This document shows, piece by piece, positions 3,301 to 45,543 of a stretch of DNA of 64,000 nt. Numbering within the stretch: position 1 is the first letter of the stretch; each line of letters begins with the position of its first letter. Position numbers and translations under genes: made by a program. Under the pieces are notes generated by a model that saw only the letters and a program-made list of their open reading frames with translations, had not been told where the DNA came from and did not search any database. This DNA comes from a virus. The stretch lies in IMG/VR virus record IMGVR_UViG_3300025000_000005, positions 26,779 to 90,778 of that record. The stretch is one strand, 5' to 3'.

Positions 3301-6300
3301 CCCGCCGAATCTTTCTTTCATGTACGCGGATTTGAGCTGCATATCAATTGCCCTCTGAGCGCTTTTAACAACCGAAAGGTAGGCAACGTCGCTGGTTTTC
3401 TCCCCAGATTTGAACGAATTCTTGTACTCGTGGGCCTCATCTATGATCACATTGGTAAAACCCATATCCTCAAAATAGGGAAGCTCACCCTTTTTGCGCG
3501 TTCCCTCATCCGAATACTTGGCTTCCGCCCGAAGTCCGGCCTTATCGTCATCATAGGTTTTCTTTTTTGATCCGCCGTCATCCTCAGCCACACCGTTTGC
3601 GCTTAAGGACTTAGCCATCTTGTCGCTGATCAAAGAGCGGTCCGACATCTTCTTGGCATACCTCGCTTTCGTGTCCGGCCGCATCGGTATTGACCCGAAT
3701 TTCGTGCTTGTCATCACCACAAGGGACTTGTTTGTGTTAGGTATTTCCCACATCTTGGCCCATATGTCATCAGGGTCTTTTTTGGTTATAAGGAGAGTTT
3801 GCTTCTCAACCTCGTTCGTGAATTTGTTGATTTTAGGGTTTCCAAACTCATCCTGGACAATTTCCTGCCGAGGCTTCCCGTTTTTGTCCAGCCTTGCCTC
3901 TATGCCAACGAAAAGTACGTCATCAATGTCGGTCACGAACTTATTTGTCTCATGATACCAGTTATTCAGGACCGCATCCGGAACGACTATACACGTCTTT
4001 TTAGTCCGCCCCATCTGTTTGTTGTAGAGGTGCAGGGCAATGGCCGAAAGGGTTTTCCCCAAGCCGACATCATCCGCCAGAATCCCGCCGCCCTCTTCTG
4101 AGAGCCTACGAATTGCCGAATATTGGTACCCGTGGGGTTTAATTCGGTCAGAGAAACCCTCTATATGCAAGGGCGAATCATCGTATTCGTGGGGGATGAA
4201 AGCATTGAATTTGCGGTTATAAACGGCCGCGACCTGCGCCATGTCCGGATGCTGCTGCATCCAGGCATTGAAGTTTTCAGTCGTTGCCTTTATCGCTTGC
4301 GTGTATGCCTCTCTTCGTTCTTGTGCGCCTTCTCCAGTCGGTGCGACATTATCCCCATTGAGAAACTTTAAGAACTGATTTTTGAATCCGGGCCCCTCGA
4401 TACCGATCCATTTGCCGAACGGGTTGTCAAAATCCTCAACGAACTTGTTTGCGGTTATCGTTTCACCTGTTACCGAATCCTCCTTCTCAACCTCTGCATC
4501 AGCCCCGAAGCTGGCATGCGGGTATCCGTTGGCCCTCAAAAACTCCACCAGGTATTTTTTAGGAAACCACTTTTCCTGCAATCCCAGATCGATATCTTCA
4601 GGTGGAGTCAGCTTTAATTTCGACTGAATGGTGTCGATTTGCTGCTGCCACTTTTCCTTGAGGCGGGAATCCTCCTCATCGGCCATCACTTGCGTTAGCT
4701 CGACCATCTTGGGGTACACATCGCCGGAGGCATACCGTCCCATAGGCATGATCATGCCGCTCGGCGCAATGGCAATACCATCGGCAGATGCCAGATCCCC
4801 CAGGTTCTCTATCGCCATTTTTCCGGTATAGATCTTCTTTACATCCTCAAGTTCAATATTTTGCATGCCTTCCCGGACATAAAGGTGCTCAACAATCGAT
4901 TGGATATTCGTGGAGTCGAAGGCCGTTCGATCCTCGGATAGCGTCCCAGCCAGCAGATCGGAAAAAACGCCTTTCTGATCGACCGAACTCAAAAACATCC
5001 CGAATGCGCGGGAGCTTTCACCGGTCAAGACGAGCCACTTACACCCTTTTGGATGCCCGTAGCGCTCGATCTCTGCCGCCACCATGCTTTGCAAGCGGTC
5101 TCTTTCCATGTCGTCAGAACTGGTTCTCAGCCTGCCTATGAGTCCGCCGATAACGGTCCCCCGGAAGGCCTGCTCCCTAAACTTGTCATCGGTCTGGCTC
5201 ATGGAAAATAAAACGGCATCGGTATGGAGGCTCGACAAGAGTTCCGGCCATGTCTTGTAAATGGCGAAGGCCTGCTCAGCCGTTAACTGCAATGCTCCAT
5301 CCGGGCTCGAAAGAATCGCTTTCAGGTCGTCAAGTGTCGCGGCGCCATATTTTTTCGCATCAAGCGCCATTCCGGAATCTGCCTGGATGGTTGCGACCCA
5401 CCTCCCCCCGATGAATTCACACTGCCGACCATTAATGATTCGGTGATCGCCCTCAACATAGGTTGGCGGATCCGCCGGCGCGACGTCCAGCATGTCCCAA
5501 TCGATTCTTGAGTCGAACCTGACCGCTATTTTCTGCTTCAGCGCGGCCGGGTCGATATCCCCGTCAACTACCTCCCGGCTCCATCGGTCGCCGTCGATTT
5601 TCGGGACGTAGGTCCCATGGATAAACTGCCGCCCCTCGCCCTGCCAGTACGACCCGTTTACGAATTCACCCCAAACCACTTTTGCATCTTGCAAGGTCTT
5701 GAAATCTATATTGTCTATCTTTTCAATCAGATCGGATGGATGCTTTTTAAAAACGATAATATCGACAACCGTGTCCGTTCCCTGAGCCCGGAATGTCTTT
5801 GATGGCAATTTATGAGCGCCCAGGAACTCGGCCTTTTTCGAAACGGCTATCCTGAATTGGTTCCATCGATCCGATTTATTGGTCAGGATATTCGTGGGGA
5901 CTACCAGGCACGCCAAACCGCCAGGGCGGGTCTTGTCCAATGCGCGGAGGATGAAATACCGCTCGATTCGTTTCTCGTTTTTATAGGCCGGGTCGTCATG
6001 GATCGATTTGCCGCGGGCATCCCCGAAAGGAACGTTCCCTATTACCGAATCAAAATGATTATCATCGGTTTTCCCTACGAGAGACTCGAAACTTCCGGTC
6101 CTTATCGAATCTTCAGGGTTAAAAAGCTGCGCTATTTTGGATCCAACCGGATCTATGTCCGTACCAGTCACAACCAGGCCGGCCGGTTTTGTGGACGGGA
6201 AAACGCCCGCACCCGTGCAAGGGTCCAAAATATTCCCGGCCGTAATGCCATACCCCTTCAAAATGTCCCACATTCCCTCGGCTACCGGAGTCGGCGTGTA

Positions 6301-18577: not shown

Positions 18578-20725
18578 TTATTGGACCCTATAACTCCCGG
18601 AAACGCTTATGACCGAAGTGTCTAACAGATGCGCATCCGTAATCTGAGCGCTTGATCCATCAGTGGCTCCAGTATACACCTTAACCGAGGTTGAGCTGTA
18701 CAGCGCTAAAGCGTAAAGTCCCTGGTTCATCGCTCCAGACGCCAATGCAGTAGCCCTGATAGCACACGGGAAGCTCAGCGCGTTATGAACCGTGTAGGGA
18801 AGTCCTTCGATCAAAACGTAACCTGTTTCACTACCTTTACTTGTCAAGGTAATATTAATCCCGAAATGGACAATGTTGCCGACCCGCGTATACCGGCCAA
18901 CTTGGTTGCTGTAAGTGATGCCAGTTGAGCTTCCGCCGATGGTTATCGTTGGTGTCCATGTGCCCTCCAGATACCAATCGAGCACCGTTGTTCCGGCGTT
19001 GTCTTCATTCCCCAGGATCGACCCGTTAAGGATTTTAGTGGTGCAGTTTGACACATTGCCAGATTGGACAAATTTCCCGGAAATTGTGGCAGTATTGATC
19101 AGATCAGTGGTACATGTCTGAACTAAATTGCCCACAATGGTCGCGGCAGTAATCGTCCCTGAAAGGTTGATACCGGCCGAACCGGTTCCGGTAGCACCAG
19201 ATATTTTGTTTCCGGAAACGACCACTCGGTTGGCGCTCGCTATCCTAATATCTGCCATGTCGTCCACCGTGGCAGATCCACCGAACGAATTACCGACAAT
19301 CGAGGCATCCAGCGCGCTACTGCTGCCAGATAGCGAAACAACATCGTTCGGGATATTTACAAACTCATTGTCAGACACCGAGACGGTCCCGAGGCCCGTC
19401 CCCCCGTAGATTCCGTAATCCGTTTGACCAATAATATTCCCCATGATTTTTACGAGCATGCTTTGATTCGAGGAGTTATTTGCGTAGATCGCATAATCAG
19501 TATTCGGTGTATTAACTCCATCCAAAAACAAGCCGGGGCCTATGGTCAGTGCGGAGATTTTTGTATCGTTCGATTCATTGATTCTGATTAAGTAATCTTT
19601 GGCCCAACTGACGTAGCCGTTCATTATGGTCAGGCCGTCGCATGCGAGTACACTGATACAACTTTCAGCTATTGTCGCGCCTCCAATAGAAAAATTACTC
19701 ACCTGGCAAGTGAACGGAGCTTGGTATGTTGCCCCGTCCGAGTTTAGTGTCCGTGTGAAATACAGCAACCCGGCACCAGCTATGGCAGCTCCGGTATATC
19801 CGGAGCATGACAAAACGAAATCGGATAACTGATTAAGCTGCCCACCAGCGACTTGAATGCCCTTAAGATACCTACTAACAGATACGTTTTTGAGAGTAAA
19901 ACCAGCAACCTGTCTCAAATAAATTCCAATCCCTGTCGATACGGTACCGGCATTTGTAACGCTCAGATCGGAAATCCCGCAATTATAAAGGAACTCGTTC
20001 CCGGAGCTTGGAGAAGGCGGGTAGAAATAAATACAATTCGCAGAATTCGAAGTATTTGTAATCGTCGTAACGCTTCGACCCGCCCCTCTCAATTTTTGAT
20101 TTGCCTTGGTCAATGTAAGCGCTGTTACAAGATAATTCCCCTCCGGAAGGAAATTATCGTTTTTCCCGACCGCCAGCATCGCCATAATGGCCGCTGTGCT
20201 GTCGGACGTTCCGGTTTTGTCCGCGCCGAACCACAGCGCGTTTATTGCTCTCGGAGCGTATGTCCTCCACCAAGCACCACCAGAGCCGGTTGGAAGAGCG
20301 CTGGGAGCGGCGGTGATCCCTTTTTGCGTATCAGCGGTAACATTCGCTACGCATGGGGTACTATCCCACTCGAAGTCTCCCTCGTACCCATCGCCTGCCG
20401 ATGTGCGGCCTGCAACATGAACGATCGTACCATCCGCCGGGAGGGGTAGCGCAATAAGCTCGGCAAGGGTGGCAACCGTGTCCAGCTTGCTGTTAACCGC
20501 CGCCTTTATTGCATTTGCGTCCTCCTCCGAGAATTTCTCCGTATCAAGGAGTGGCGGAATCCAGTCGTTCGCAATTTTGTCGGCCCAAACAATATCAGAT
20601 GCCGAAGATGTAGACACAGATCCAACCAACATCGAAAACAAACAAAAAATCCAGAGTATTTTTTTCACAGTGTCATTCCTCTCTCTTATAGCCTTCGGCC
20701 GAACAACCGACCCCATCTTCATCAA
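18578..20725 (-). CDS. Tailspike/depolymerase-like beta-helix protein with signal-peptide-like N-terminus
   Basis: WFGADKTGTSDSTAAI..FLPEGNY..LRGAG (pectate-lyase-3-like), beta-helix repeats, C-terminal EGTWTPTI..GRYTRVGNIV domain. Probable start GTG 20668. Confidence 0.8.
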   Translation of the reverse strand: MMKMGSVVRPKAIRERNDTVKKILWIFCLFSMLVGSVSTSSASDIVWADKIANDWIPPLLDTEKFSEEDANAIKAAVNSKLDTVATLAELIALPLPADGTIVHVAGRTSAGDGYEGDFEWDSTPCVANVTADTQKGITAAPSALPTGSGGAWWRTYAPRAINALWFGADKTGTSDSTAAIMAMLAVGKNDNFLPEGNYLVTALTLTKANQKLRGAGRSVTTITNTSNSANCIYFYPPSPSSGNEFLYNCGISDLSVTNAGTVSTGIGIYLRQVAGFTLKNVSVSRYLKGIQVAGGQLNQLSDFVLSCSGYTGAAIAGAGLLYFTRTLNSDGATYQAPFTCQVSNFSIGGATIAESCISVLACDGLTIMNGYVSWAKDYLIRINESNDTKISALTIGPGLFLDGVNTPNTDYAIYANNSSNQSMLVKIMGNIIGQTDYGIYGGTGLGTVSVSDNEFVNIPNDVVSLSGSSSALDASIVGNSFGGSATVDDMADIRIASANRVVVSGNKISGATGTGSAGINLSGTITAATIVGNLVQTCTTDLINTATISGKFVQSGNVSNCTTKILNGSILGNEDNAGTTVLDWYLEGTWTPTITIGGSSTGITYSNQVGRYTRVGNIVHFGINITLTSKGSETGYVLIEGLPYTVHNALSFPCAIRATALASGAMNQGLYALALYSSTSVKVYTGATDGSSAQITDAHLLDTSVISVSGSYRVQ

Positions 20726-41174: not shown

Positions 41175-41902
41175 TAAAAGCCCCCGATGGTGCCGCACTT
41201 AATGTCGAACCCGTACTGGATTCGCATCGGATCCACAATTTCAACGGCATCGCCAATTATGACCGGCGCCGACACATCGATTTTCCCGGTCACGGCGTAG
41301 AACCGGCCCGATTCATCGGTAATGCTGGCATCGTCAAGGATGCATGTCTTGCAGTTCTTGACCGTGGCTTTTAATTCGATGGGGTTTCCGGCGATCTCGT
41401 AGTGGATCTTGAACCGGTCTGATACAGGGGATTGGGAAACAAGCGAGAACCAGGCTATGGACATGCGATCGAGGGATGCTTTGTCCCTGGAGATAAAACC
41501 TATTTCGTAGGTGAGAGCCAAGGAAAGCATGCGGAGTCTCATATCCGTGTCATCAGCCCCGGCATAGCGCTTCACCCACTGGTTGAACGGACCATCAATA
41601 TTATCGGCGTCACTGACAAGCCCTGGCTTTCTGTAATAATAGATCACTGGGAGTTTTGCGACATTCACCCTCGCAGGGGTCGCGCCGGCGGCCGATGTAA
41701 CCGCCTTGGCATCACTGAGGTAGTTTTTTAGGAATGCGGCCACACCATCGCACTGATGCCGAAACACCTTCTGATTGCTGGCTCGGGCAATGAATTCCTG
41801 GAATTCTTTTGGGCCATTCGTGGCTGAGAAGCCGGTAAATGCGGATAGGATGTAGGTCCCAAACGCAATATCAACGGCAAAAAGCTCGCTCATCTCGTTC
41901 AT
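41174..41902 (-). CDS. 24: gp24 tail terminator homologue
   Basis: FQEFIAR..VNVAKLPVI..RFYAV; synteny. Confidence 0.72.
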   Translation of the reverse strand: MNEMSELFAVDIAFGTYILSAFTGFSATNGPKEFQEFIARASNQKVFRHQCDGVAAFLKNYLSDAKAVTSAAGATPARVNVAKLPVIYYYRKPGLVSDADNIDGPFNQWVKRYAGADDTDMRLRMLSLALTYEIGFISRDKASLDRMSIAWFSLVSQSPVSDRFKIHYEIAGNPIELKATVKNCKTCILDDASITDESGRFYAVTGKIDVSAPVIIGDAVEIVDPMRIQYGFDIKCGTIGGF

Positions 41903-42390
41903 TGGGCGTCCTTGAACTCCTCTTCGAGATCAATAAAGGGGAGCATGGAATAAACGACAGCCACCCCTGGATGTTTCGTTGCCGACACGGCACCGTCCAC
42001 ATAAAAGATTCTGCGAACCGTGCTGTCATCGGTCGAATCATACTCGTCATAAAGAAGGATGCTTCCCTTGGGCACGCTGGAGGCGCCGATCAGCATTTGA
42101 ACCGGCTGACCCTCGAACCCGGTCCAGTGCTCGCCAGCCGTGTCCATGGATACCTGAAAATCAATCGGGAGTTCGTAGGCATAGACCGGAACTGGATCTG
42201 AATAATCAATCGTTTTTTCGCTTGCCTCCATTGATCCGACATTGTCAGGCTCATCCGTAAGTTGCTCTACGGAGGCTCGGTCGGCACGGAAAAGAACAGC
42301 CTTGATAGCGGTAGGCTCAGTGGATAGAAAGGCTATCAGATCATCGGCGAGAACCTGAAAGGTCGGTCTGAAATCTCTCTGAGTTGTCAT
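41899..42390 (-). CDS. 7: gp7 head-tail connector homologue
   Basis: AVLFRA..DYSDP..VPKGSIL..VRRIFYV matches recalled gp7. Confidence 0.78.
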   Translation of the reverse strand: MTTQRDFRPTFQVLADDLIAFLSTEPTAIKAVLFRADRASVEQLTDEPDNVGSMEASEKTIDYSDPVPVYAYELPIDFQVSMDTAGEHWTGFEGQPVQMLIGASSVPKGSILLYDEYDSTDDSTVRRIFYVDGAVSATKHPGVAVVYSMLPFIDLEEEFKDAQ

Positions 42391-42528
42391 TCAGATATGC
42401 CCCCGTTTAAATTACCTTCGATATATCTTTTTTAAAGCATACCTTTTTTTAAAGCAAACTTTTTTTCTTTAAAACTTTATTTCGGGAATAGATATTGCAG
42501 TGAGCTTGTTACATATTTTTTTCTGTCT

Positions 42529-42571
42529 TGCGTATTTTTTTCTTGACAATACGCATTTGGGCATATATATT
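42529..42571 (+). promoter_or_regulatory. Sigma70 promoter with inverted-repeat operator
   Basis: TTGACA (42543-48)-17 bp-TATATT (42566-71); inverted repeat TGCGTATT (42529-36)/AATACGCA (42548-55) straddles the -35. Confidence 0.8.
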
Positions 42572-42612
42572 GAAATCAACAATGGATGAAAACTTTAACC
42601 TTGGAGGTAAAA

Positions 42613-42873
42613 ATGAAAATTTCGGAAAATGACAGAAAAAGAGCAAAGGCGATAGCAATACAAATTGAAGAAGCTCACAATCGAGGGGACATGGCGACAC
42701 GAAACCAACTCATCCCCGACCTGAAACAAATCATAGGGTATTGGCCCGCTAACGACCGCCTGACAACAAAAGAATTTAGGGGAGAATCTATCCCGCCAAT
42801 GCGCTATGTGACACCAAGCGGACATACTCATAAATTTTTTACGGCGCAAGAAAAATGGGCATGCTCGGAATGA
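42613..42873 (+). CDS. Small hypothetical protein (Acr/anti-defence candidate)
   Basis: ATG 42613 after GGAGG; 86 aa; first gene after the strong promoter. Confidence 0.7.
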   Translation: MKISENDRKRAKAIAIQIEEAHNRGDMATRNQLIPDLKQIIGYWPANDRLTTKEFRGESIPPMRYVTPSGHTHKFFTAQEKWACSE

Positions 42874-43070
42874 ATCGATACCGAGAAATAATGACCGCGA
42901 GGGAATTCTCGCAAAGTGCCGGTGAAACCAAACTTTCACCGGCATCAATAGAAATAGGCCGGAGTTACCTTGTCGCCGGGTTGTCCATCAAGGAGACGGC
43001 GAAAAAACATGCCGAAGCCCCAGAACAGGTGCGGCGGATCGTGGCGAGAATATGCCGCAAAACCCATTAA
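42870..43070 (+). CDS. TrfB/KorA-like HTH regulator (Aca-like)
   Basis: MTAREF..SIEIGRSYLVAGLSIKETAKKH..EQVRRIVARI resembles the KorA/TrfB HTH; ATGA coupling. Confidence 0.7.
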   Translation: MNRYREIMTAREFSQSAGETKLSPASIEIGRSYLVAGLSIKETAKKHAEAPEQVRRIVARICRKTH

Positions 43071-43087
43071 CGTGGAGGATTGAGACC

Positions 43088-43576
43088 ATGAATAACCATT
43101 TACCAATAAATGATATTCTAAAAATATGTACCGAGCATGCCGAGCTGATCAAATCGGAAATCAAGGCGCGTGAAACCGAGGCTATCCAGAGCAAGGGATG
43201 GCTGAGCTTTGACAAAATAACCGACATCTGTGGATATCGAGGAGGAAAACAATATTTCGCAATTGAGGGCGGGACCGCAACGGGGTTGATGGTTATAGAC
43301 GATGACAATATTTTTGTGGTGCCTGCGATTTGTGACGGTGCCGTTTATTCGTCATATCCGGACGAAGGGAGCGGCGGCATAGCACATTTGTTGCTGCTAA
43401 AAAAGCGGGAAAACGGTCAGGCCGTGAATAGGTGGTCTGTTGTGTGGATGTCAGGCGGGTGGCTCCACAAGGAAGAGTTTGAGAAACTATCGCCCGCTGA
43501 AATTGGGGACGTACTTGTTGATGAAATATTGGATGGCAAAAACGTTATTATCCCAAAGCCGCAAGGGCGGGCATGA
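43088..43576 (+). CDS. Acidic hypothetical protein (Acr/anti-defence candidate)
   Basis: ATG 43088 after GGAGG; 162 aa. Confidence 0.7.
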   Translation: MNNHLPINDILKICTEHAELIKSEIKARETEAIQSKGWLSFDKITDICGYRGGKQYFAIEGGTATGLMVIDDDNIFVVPAICDGAVYSSYPDEGSGGIAHLLLLKKRENGQAVNRWSVVWMSGGWLHKEEFEKLSPAEIGDVLVDEILDGKNVIIPKPQGRA

Positions 43577-44112
43577 CATTCCCCATGTCGGCGATAACGA
43601 TTAAGGATAGAGTAATGAAAAAATCAATTTTTGAGCATGAGCTATCAAAGGCTCAAACGCTTTATGAATACGGTAAGGACGAAGAAAAAGAATTCTGGCG
43701 GGGATACATGCGTGGAGTCCGACGCCGCTACCACGGGGAGAATTTCGAAACCGAAGCGGACCATCAAAAATGGCTAAGCCTTGTCAATGACGATTACCAT
43801 CATGAAGCCGGCCGTGGCTACCGAGCTGGCTTTTATGGCCCGGTCCGCTTGGTGACAAACCACCCCAAAGCCTCATACGGAATCCCCATATTTTGGGATA
43901 AGGATGGAGAGCCGATGGATTACGCAGAGGGGTTCACAGCTCTCCGGGATTGGTGGGGGATTGACAACATGGCCGAAGAGGCGTGGGTGTCGGTGCGGAC
44001 GGCGGAAGGGTGGTGCGCCGGCCGGATGCCGGGTAGTAAAAATTTGCTAAGGCTATTTAACGTTATGAGCTACACGGACAAGCCCAGGGATAATTCGGAG
44101 ACCTCCTCATAG
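43573..44112 (+). CDS. Two-domain protein with C-terminal XRE-like HTH
   Basis: ALRDWWGIDNMAEEAWVSVRTAEGWCAGRMP is HTH-like; N-domain has two GYxxG motifs. Confidence 0.65.
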   Translation: MTFPMSAITIKDRVMKKSIFEHELSKAQTLYEYGKDEEKEFWRGYMRGVRRRYHGENFETEADHQKWLSLVNDDYHHEAGRGYRAGFYGPVRLVTNHPKASYGIPIFWDKDGEPMDYAEGFTALRDWWGIDNMAEEAWVSVRTAEGWCAGRMPGSKNLLRLFNVMSYTDKPRDNSETSS

Positions 44113-44181
44113 GCTTTTGTTGCCATAACAACATAAATCTTTTTCTTGCAATCTTTAAATCTTTATTGCAGGGTATGGGTA

Positions 44182-44362
44182 TGCTTTTATCCCTGCTCGT
44201 GGGGTTTGTTCATGAGACGTTCCTCCTATAGAATATGTCACTATTTATTTTAAGTTTCAGTATCCTGCTCATGGGAGACGTTCATGAGACTACTTTTTGC
44301 GGGCGGAACGGGCTTTTCGGTCGAACTTCAAGTATCCTGATCATGGGGGTCGTACATGAGAC
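44182..44362 (+). CRISPR. Orphan CRISPR mini-array: 3 degenerate 37-bp repeats, 2 x 35-bp spacers (orientation tentative)
   Basis: Repeats at 44182-44218, 44254-44290 (GTTTCAGTATCCTGCTCATGGGAGACGTTCATGAGAC) and 44326-44362, exact 72-bp period. R2/R3 30/37 identical. Internal CTCATG/CATGAG stem. Spacer 2 matches gene 25 at 27/35. Confidence 0.85.
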
Positions 44363-44364
44363 CG

Positions 44365-45543
44365 TCAAACCGATAACCCAACAGCCAACTCCGCCACTTC
44401 AGCCTCGGAAAGTTTATTTTGAGCCGCGAAATCAGCCATGGCCCTCTCCTTCGGAATCTTATCCCGATAAACGGCGACCAAAAGGGCTGTATTGAGAGCT
44501 GACTTGAGCTTCTCCTTCGAGAGGTCCGCCTCAAGCTGCTTTCTTTTCTTAACCTCAACCCTGGCAGTCTTTTTAAAAACCTCCAACTCGACCTCTTTCT
44601 GCCGCATAAATTCTTTCGTTTCAGCTTCCTTCATCTTTTTCTTAAGCCCCTTATGCGCCGCCTTGTATTTCCGGTACATCTCCTTGGCGACCTTGGAGGT
44701 CGGTGCCTCCATATTGGCGCTCGATCTGGCCGCGGTCTGCAATTCGTCTTTCGAAAGAAACCGGTTCGCGACCTTGACGTCATCACCATACCCGATCTGG
44801 TCAGCCGCCTTCTTCATCTCCCCGATAACGAGCTTTTGAACCGCAGGCCCCTGGAGTGTAGCCAAGACCTTCAGGACGTGCTTACAACAGGCACCGATAA
44901 GCCTGGGGTTCCTGATCTTCGGGTATGCGTTCTCAAGCGGCGCCACTGCAAACCCGCCGATAGTTGCAACATACCTATACCAAAACTGATGCCGGCCGCA
45001 ATCACAATCGAAGGAGATTCGCCCCCCGAGAATTTTCTTGGCCGCTTCAGGGAAAGGAAGATTCCCGGTCAGGTGCTCGGTCCACTCGTCCAGCCTGATT
45101 TTTACCTGGTGGCTATCCTTTTTGCTTTCGGGACCGGACGATGTGGAGAAATGCAGTAGTACGCCGTCCCGGGAATTGAAAACCCGGTAAAATGTTGCAC
45201 GCTTGATATGATCCCGGCTTCGCTTGAGATCGGACGATAGGGAAGCGGCCATGAGCTGTGCGGCAGGCACCCCCTTCTTGGTTGATTTATATCTCTTCCT
45301 GGCGGACCGGGCTTTCCGGTCAAACTCCCGCAAATCGTCAGCCGTGAACGGGGTTCCATCCTTCTTGACACCGAAAATTAAATCGAGAGTGGCGCCGGAA
45401 GAGAGGTATTTCCGGAACTGACCGGGCGTAAGGGTACCGACAGCGGCCCGGCGCTTTTCGAGCTGCTCCTTCCTCGCCGCGTTGAACAGCTTTTCGGCCG
45501 CCCGCGCCTGCTCTTTGGATTCGATTTGTTTCATCACTGTCAC
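44365..45543 (-). CDS. 25: gp25 homologue (SWIM Zn-finger protein)
   Basis: KKDGTPFT..GRISFDCDCGRHQFWYRY..PKIRNP.L.G.CCKHVL matches recalled P1 gp25. Confidence 0.92.
   Translation of the reverse strand: MTVMKQIESKEQARAAEKLFNAARKEQLEKRRAAVGTLTPGQFRKYLSSGATLDLIFGVKKDGTPFTADDLREFDRKARSARKRYKSTKKGVPAAQLMAASLSSDLKRSRDHIKRATFYRVFNSRDGVLLHFSTSSGPESKKDSHQVKIRLDEWTEHLTGNLPFPEAAKKILGGRISFDCDCGRHQFWYRYVATIGGFAVAPLENAYPKIRNPRLIGACCKHVLKVLATLQGPAVQKLVIGEMKKAADQIGYGDDVKVANRFLSKDELQTAARSSANMEAPTSKVAKEMYRKYKAAHKGLKKKMKEAETKEFMRQKEVELEVFKKTARVEVKKRKQLEADLSKEKLKSALNTALLVAVYRDKIPKERAMADFAAQNKLSEAEVAELAVGLSV

Follow-up and report, generated by a model that had tools for sequence, protein, structure and literature searches.

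A CRISPR mini-array inside a phage tail operon

The DNA analysed here is a 64,000-nucleotide (nt) stretch, hereafter the window, that comprises bases 26779-90778 of IMG/VR record IMGVR_UViG_3300025000_000005. The record is a complete virus genome of 90,778 bp with direct terminal repeats, and the phage is present in groundwater and soil metagenomes from five studies. Within the window, a short CRISPR array lies against a homologue of gene 25 of phage P1. Three 37-nt repeats (R1, R2, and R3) follow one another at start-to-start distances of 72 and 72 bp and enclose two 35-nt spacers, m1 and m2 (Table 1; coordinates are those of the window unless the genome is named). The last base of R3 is 44362, and gene 25, an open reading frame (ORF) on the minus strand, has its stop codon at 44365-44367, so that the two are 2 bp apart. 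The array takes up most of the 252-bp gap between two convergent genes, a plus-strand ORF that ends at 44112 and gene 25 itself. The number, length, period, and position of the repeats are those given in a preliminary description of this DNA, and the three-repeat element is a genuine CRISPR mini-array. The repeats are imperfect: in a 39-nt register, the identity to R2 is 62% for R1 and 82% for R3. In contigs from two other studies the mini-array is identical, and the contigs of other runs equal the window and hold no variant array; this constancy may simply reflect one strain.

The gene 25 ORF matches phrog_1722 (E = 2e-84) and, in tblastn, P1 gene 25 (39.7% identity, E = 2e-43). It sits in a syntenic 25-7-24-6 tail block, the downstream genes of which match phrog_1906, phrog_1767, and phrog_1390. 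Hence, both the gene name and the label 'P1-like' used in the preliminary description hold. The nearest homologues of the gene product (gp25) among 5.8 billion proteins are ~55% identical. There is a further record of this gp25 protein, on a contig of 274,338 bp, about three genome lengths, which may be a concatemer-type assembly of the phage.

The mini-array belongs to the repeat family of a phage-encoded Cas12m

The preliminary description found no cas gene in the 64 kb, which is correct for the window but not for the genome, as a cas12m gene and a second, larger array (the main array) lie outside the window. The gene is a 599-amino-acid (aa) ORF (P0005; positions 4253-6052 of locus L011, minus strand) whose product matches the Cas12m structure PDB 23vw_A over residues 14-585 (E = 1.3e-76), as well as Cas12m2 8hhl (E = 1.2e-24) and the Pfam family Cas12f1-like_TNB, a TNB zinc-ribbon domain. 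Judged by these matches, the protein is a full-length Cas12m homologue of type V-M. Its RuvC triad reads N-E-D, with Asn in motif I (AINIGWR), E in motif II, and D in motif III; most relatives have D-E-D, and N-containing RuvC triads are listed among Cas12m clades (PMC10442227, PMC11013384). It is the only Cas12-type gene in the complete genome, and neither Cas1 nor Cas2 was found in the 90,778 bp.

The main array lies directly downstream of this ORF and a leader, at genome 12478-13097 (positions 3479-4098 of L011) on the minus strand, with ~58 kb between it and the mini-array. Nine repeats were recovered there in a fuzzy search with R2, and the spacers between them are 34-37 nt long. The main array is a hybrid in which six identical repeats with the stem CTCAGA/TCTGAG are followed by three leader-distal variants with the stem CTCATG/CATGAG; this variant stem is the one borne by all three repeats of the mini-array. 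A covariance model (model R1) built from the phage's own 12 repeats picks up exactly 12 repeats genome-wide, nine in the main array and three in the mini-array, and nothing else, and under this model the mini-array repeats score 43-58 bits with E below 1e-11. R2 and the main-array consensus disagree at 5 of their 37 positions, four of which form two compensatory stem pairs and one of which lies in the loop.

At its 3' end, directly before the spacer, the repeat has a hairpin that in the phage is 98.5% paired; two of its pairs are compensatory between the repeat families. In 29 distinct repeats from Cas12m loci of other genomes, all of them metagenome-assembled genomes (MAGs), the hairpin is 99.4% paired and shows three covarying pairs. 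The Cas12m locus of a Desulfosudis oleivorans MAG (L096) has the same CTCATG/CATGAG stem as the mini-array, and the repeats in other genomes that most resemble those of the mini-array adjoin Cas12m genes. Because the phage encodes Cas12m and the array next to cas12m has the same repeat family, we regard the mini-array as a satellite of the phage's own type V-M system. The preliminary description had instead proposed a Cas-less array that borrows Cas proteins from the host, a view at odds with this kinship.

The guide strand of the mini-array is the plus strand, as fixed by the sense of the main array relative to cas12m and by G-U pairs, which in three variants are compatible only with a GTTTCAG...GAGAC sense strand, that is, with the plus strand of the window. 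Read in this direction, the repeat hairpin precedes the spacer, as in type V systems. A guide read from the minus strand, on which R2 ends in CTGAAAC, was considered and dropped, as it would run opposite in sense to the main array relative to cas12m and as the G-U pairs fit the plus strand only. On the guide strand, the R2 hairpin together with the T-rich start of spacer m2 (44268-44288, plus strand) has an intrinsic-terminator-like score.

Tiny degenerate arrays also occur at related Cas12m loci in metagenomes and MAGs (L108 2805-2918; L095 5801-5969; L098 4612-4791). In L108 a two-repeat unit lies immediately upstream of cas12m, and L095 and L098 have a two-spacer array in common, with spacers conserved between both MAGs. 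These observations suggest guides that are fixed rather than adaptive.

Spacer m2 resembles the phage's own gene 25 at the level of codons

Spacer m2 aligns without gaps to the phage's own gene 25 (45290-45324) at 27 of 35 positions. This self match, already reported in the preliminary description, stands out from the rest of the genome: the next best site for m2 on either strand of the whole 90.8 kb reaches 21 of 35, and the highest background value that any of the ten phage spacers attains in the genome is 23. By chance, a match of at least 27/35 has an expectation of 2.8e-5 in this genome. Read in the frame of gene 25, m2 specifies the same residue in 10 of 11 codons, with mismatches at codon positions 3, 3, 3, 1, 3, 3, 2, and 3, and the probability that eight random substitutions change at most one residue is 1.6e-4. 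Of the phage's spacers, m2 alone matches the phage's own genome at the protein level. Both the self version and the spacer version are written in ordinary codons, and unusual recoding is not indicated.

Because the mismatches follow codon positions, m2 appears to come from a diverged coding homologue. Its most likely source, and the simplest reading of the pattern, would be a functional copy of gene 25 in a fairly close relative; on that simplest reading, the source allele would have ~90% residue identity and 77% base identity to the phage's own gene over this stretch. An origin in a relative's gene 25 had been proposed in the preliminary description. The coding type of the divergence supports it, but no better-matching orthologue was found in the collections searched (see below).

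The self site is flanked by TTTA, which fits the TTN protospacer-adjacent motif (PAM) of Cas12m; for Cas12m2, a 5'-TTN PAM has been reported (PMC10442227). TT is expected at a given site with a frequency of ~8%, and the two T's correspond, on the opposite strand, to bases 1 and 2 of a lysine codon. Guide positions 1-11 hold five of the eight mismatches (hypergeometric P = 0.045), and one preprint reports that Cas12m tolerates mismatches very poorly within the first 11 nt (bioRxiv 10.64898/2026.10.26.761838). With five of eight mismatches in these positions, the phage's own gene 25 would be expected to escape binding, and the earlier suggestion of self-escape through sequence differences is thus plausible insofar as that single preprint applies.

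A different partial match involves the main array. The first 16 nt of its spacer 7 match the window at 15 of 16 positions (19206-19221, plus strand) within an ORF at 18578-20725; the rest of the spacer diverges, the flank is ATT, and the site includes a palindrome. This could be chance or a seed-type self match.

Table 1. Features of the mini-array locus, in window coordinates
Feature	Position	Strand	Description
Lineage-specific insertion	42391-44364	.	1,974 bp, between gene 25 and the next tail gene; holds motif, island, and mini-array
Near-consensus sigma-70-type promoter	42543-42571	+	TTGACA, 17 nt, TATATT; 11/12 consensus matches; from a consensus scan only
Island of four small ORFs	42586-44112	+	upstream of the mini-array, in the same insertion
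16-nt motif TCTTTAAANCTTTATT, perfect copy	44152-44167	+	14 nt before R1
R1	44182-44218	+	variant family; one G-U pair in stem; near-identical to the eighth repeat of the main array; 43.2 bits, E = 3e-12
Spacer m1	44219-44253	+	35 nt, AT-rich
R2	44254-44290	+	5' handle of guide m2; 58.1 bits, against 58-60 for main-array repeats
Spacer m2	44291-44325	+	35 nt; antisense to gene 25 codons 74-85
R3	44326-44362	+	terminal repeat; one unpaired stem position; 49.7 bits
P1 gene 25 homologue	44365-45543	-	tail stability protein; SWIM-type CxC...CxH motif
Self site of m2	45286-45324	+	TTTA flank at 45286-45289, then 35-nt partial match; mismatches at guide positions 3, 4, 6, 9, 11, 18, 27, 33
TCTTTAAANCTTTATT copies	357, 7649, 11368, 25489, 25505, 27664, 39139, 42466, 44152, 49650, 56402, 63078, and others		

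The mini-array lies in an insertion that splits the tail operon

Gene 25 and the following tail gene, of 161 aa, overlap by 4 bp in L012 and L013, the two closest relatives in IMG/VR, and in P1 genes 25 and 7 are separated by 3 bp. The 161-aa tail gene of the relatives is 48% identical to window 41899-42390. Because the genes overlap in the relatives and lie 3 bp apart in P1, the intervening DNA in our window can be recognized as an insertion specific to this lineage, which interrupts an otherwise coupled tail operon. At 42001-44000 both skews, GC and AT, are reversed, and the four island ORFs have no match in Pfam or PHROG. The promoter ahead of the island may drive transcription that reads through into the mini-array.

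The 16-nt motif just before R1 has a second perfect copy at 42466-42481, at the opposite end of the island. The window holds 15 copies of this motif against 0.2 expected, 14 of them on the plus strand, and most lie upstream of a minus-strand gene, 12-140 nt from its start. The motif is likely a promoter or operator element of the phage. Rfam and transfer RNA scans of the window found nothing.

No Cas12m-type repeats were found adjacent to gp25 in the gp25 loci of relatives, gp25 was not found in five MAGs with related Cas12m genes, and the main repeat pattern had no match in viral contigs. When 93 loci around Cas12m relatives were blasted against the phage for signs of reciprocal targeting, the matches were confined to the cas12m coding region and the repeats. 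Elsewhere in the genome, outside the window, a ParA-type ATPase (AAA_31) is encoded at genome 20163-20486 on the plus strand, and no ParB_N domain was detected. The ATPase is compatible with a plasmid-like prophage state and is no proof of it.

Comparison with known systems

Mini-CRISPR arrays borne by the Sulfolobales viruses SPV1 and SPV2 take part in interviral conflict (Medvedeva et al. 2019, PMC6858448; model in PMC7099407). The array described here resembles theirs in being a viral array of one or two spacers, in having a spacer that fits, here presumably, a gene of close relatives while the carrier's copy differs, and in the superinfection exclusion that is proposed for it. The SPV1 and SPV2 arrays come without a viral effector and need host Cas, whereas here the phage has its own Cas12m and main array, and the effector is of a kind that binds rather than cuts. 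A further difference is that the matching relative was not found here in the collections scanned.

The system also resembles the type V-M systems of MmCas12m2, GoCas12m, and MsCas12m (PMC10442227, PMC11013384). The phage protein is a full-length homologue with an array directly downstream, adaptation genes and an adjacent element resembling a trans-activating CRISPR RNA (tracrRNA) are lacking, the repeat ends in a 3' hairpin that is followed by the spacer, and the flank at the one site that can be recognized is of TTN type. Unlike the known systems, which reside on bacterial chromosomes or plasmids, this one is carried by a P1-like phage, has a second and remote mini-array with variant repeats, and is known from sequence. 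By effector, repeat family, and hairpin, the mini-array is thus classed, at the level of sequence, as a member of type V-M, and it departs from the arrays of Medvedeva et al. in that a viral effector is present.

Among phages, the closest parallels are the Cas12m of myxophage MV-1 (bioRxiv 10.64898/2026.09.14.751636) and CasPhi of huge phages (cited there), which are likewise single-effector type V systems without cas1, cas2, or cas4. Phage systems of the MV-1 type are thought to act against competing elements (bioRxiv 10.64898/2026.09.14.751636). In MV-1 the triad is D-E-D, there is one array, and targets were not identified; our phage has an N-E-D triad, a separate array in the tail operon, and one guide that points to a likely target class, gene 25 of kin. 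The mini-array can also be set beside CreA, tracr-L, and the type I and V-A mini-arrays (bioRxiv 10.1101/2023.03.03.530964), which it resembles in its degenerate repeats and in a spacer that partly matches the same genome. Those regulatory guides are matched in the seed and aimed at promoters, whereas m2 has seed mismatches and its site lies in a coding region.

A proposed role for the mini-array and its alternatives

On balance, we think that the mini-array probably serves the phage's own type V-M system as a satellite array, with m2 aimed at the gene 25 of kin, and the m2 guide would then most likely be a weapon against sister phages. Transcription of the mini-array, on the plus strand, would start at a phage-specific promoter or read through from the promoter of the island, and the phage's Cas12m would cut the transcript into guides, each made of a repeat-derived 5' handle and a spacer. 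Known Cas12m proteins process their own precursor CRISPR RNA independently of RuvC, bind PAM-flanked DNA without cutting it, and protect by blocking transcription or replication (PMC11013384, PMC10442227). Guide m2, composed of the R2 handle and 44291-44325, would direct Cas12m to the gene 25 allele of close P1-like relatives, where a conserved lysine codon would set the TTN PAM. Cas12m may then bind the rival DNA without cutting, and the complex may block the rival's transcription or replication, so that a superinfecting or co-resident relative would be disabled. The phage's own allele, 965 bp away, would be spared by the five mismatches in guide positions 1-11.

Several observations weigh against this proposal. 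The outer repeats, R1 and R3, are degenerate, one stem position of R3 is unpaired, and no sigma-70-type promoter was found directly before R1. That Cas12m accepts the variant stem is something we infer. The phage has neither Cas1 nor Cas2 to account for the acquisition of the spacer. The searches for a rival carrying the matching allele also came back empty. The exact m2 spacer had no match in viral contigs, codon-degenerate patterns of m2 had none in viral and metagenome contigs, and blastn of m2 against phage and plasmid records gave none. Against 88 loci of gp25 relatives, the best m2 match was 23/35, so that the orthologue with a better match than self, which the preliminary description had named as a check, did not appear. 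The best self match of m1 is 22/35, the level of chance, m1 matched nothing in phages or plasmids, and its 23-nt PAM-proximal prefix had no match in viral contigs. The spacers of the main array likewise had no credible match in phages and plasmids. For m2 the blank says little, because the nearest sampled gp25 is only ~55% identical and lineages as close as the presumed source are unsampled.

The main rival explanation, which we consider rather unlikely, is a fossil array, that is, an old fragment that came with the island or split from the far end of the main array, that is now disused, and whose spacer records a past encounter. The decay of R1 and R3 would be expected of such a remnant, as would the variant family that the repeats share with the three repeats, likewise decayed, at the leader-distal end of the main array, the lack of a promoter directly upstream, and the lack of a target. 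What speaks for a working element is R2, the handle of m2, which at 58.1 bits scores like the main repeats and in which four of the five departures from the main consensus preserve the stem as compensatory pairs. The mini-array is also unchanged in samples of other studies, though these possibly contain the same strain. A role at the level of RNA seems improbable to us. Here the repeats would be docking or cutting sites for Cas12m, or hairpins that set the 3' end of the island transcript, or the RNA would be antisense to the 3' end of gene 25, and the content of the spacer would be irrelevant. The array is indeed the last part of a plus-strand unit convergent with gene 25, and the R2 hairpin with its T-run scores as terminator-like, but a spacer of regular 35-nt length that keeps the reading frame of gene 25, and the TTN-type flank at the self site, would be left unexplained.

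Self-regulation, in which m2 would pair in part with the phage's own gene 25 and Cas12m would tune the tail operon, was the alternative raised in the preliminary description, and we find it very improbable. Its appeal is that the neighbouring gene would be the target, that the self site has a TTTA flank, and that partially matching regulatory mini-arrays have been described (bioRxiv 10.1101/2023.03.03.530964). Such guides, however, match at the PAM-proximal end, diverge distally, and aim at promoters (same source), whereas five of the eight mismatches of m2 lie in the PAM-proximal positions 1-11, where Cas12m is reported to be intolerant of them, and the m2 site lies within the coding region, at codons 74-85. 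The mismatches also track codon positions and not a pairing design. Scarcely credible, finally, is a Cas-less array that works with a host Cas effector or serves as a repeat decoy against host CRISPR. The 64-kb window without a cas gene and the existence of virus-borne Cas-less mini-arrays (PMC6858448) are points in its favour, but the phage has its own Cas12m with an adjacent array of the same repeat family, and the most similar repeats in other genomes adjoin Cas12m genes.

Implications

A single report of a phage-borne Cas12m exists, a 2026 preprint in which no target was identified (bioRxiv 10.64898/2026.09.14.751636). Here, one guide reveals a likely target class, a tail gene of sister phages, and silent differences in the seed apparently protect the carrier's own copy. 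The own sequence and the spacer-identical sequence, with the same PAM, make a clean test pair for the discrimination of targets by Cas12m.

The array abuts, at a distance of 2 bp, the gene whose foreign alleles its guide would target, which suggests that guide and allele may stay linked through recombination. As a speculation that we hold to be unlikely, the guide and the resistant allele might be a selfish pair kept together by linkage, a greenbeard or addiction module built on CRISPR that influences mosaic evolution in phages. Recombinants that inherit the guide would also inherit the immune gene 25 allele, and rivals and unlinked recombinants would be silenced by Cas12m. If true, such a pair would account for the tolerance of an insertion that splits a coupled tail operon. 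If the satellite-array proposal itself is true, a CRISPR effector that binds DNA without cutting serves competition between viruses in a P1-like temperate phage, and systems of this kind hold satellite arrays within structural operons.

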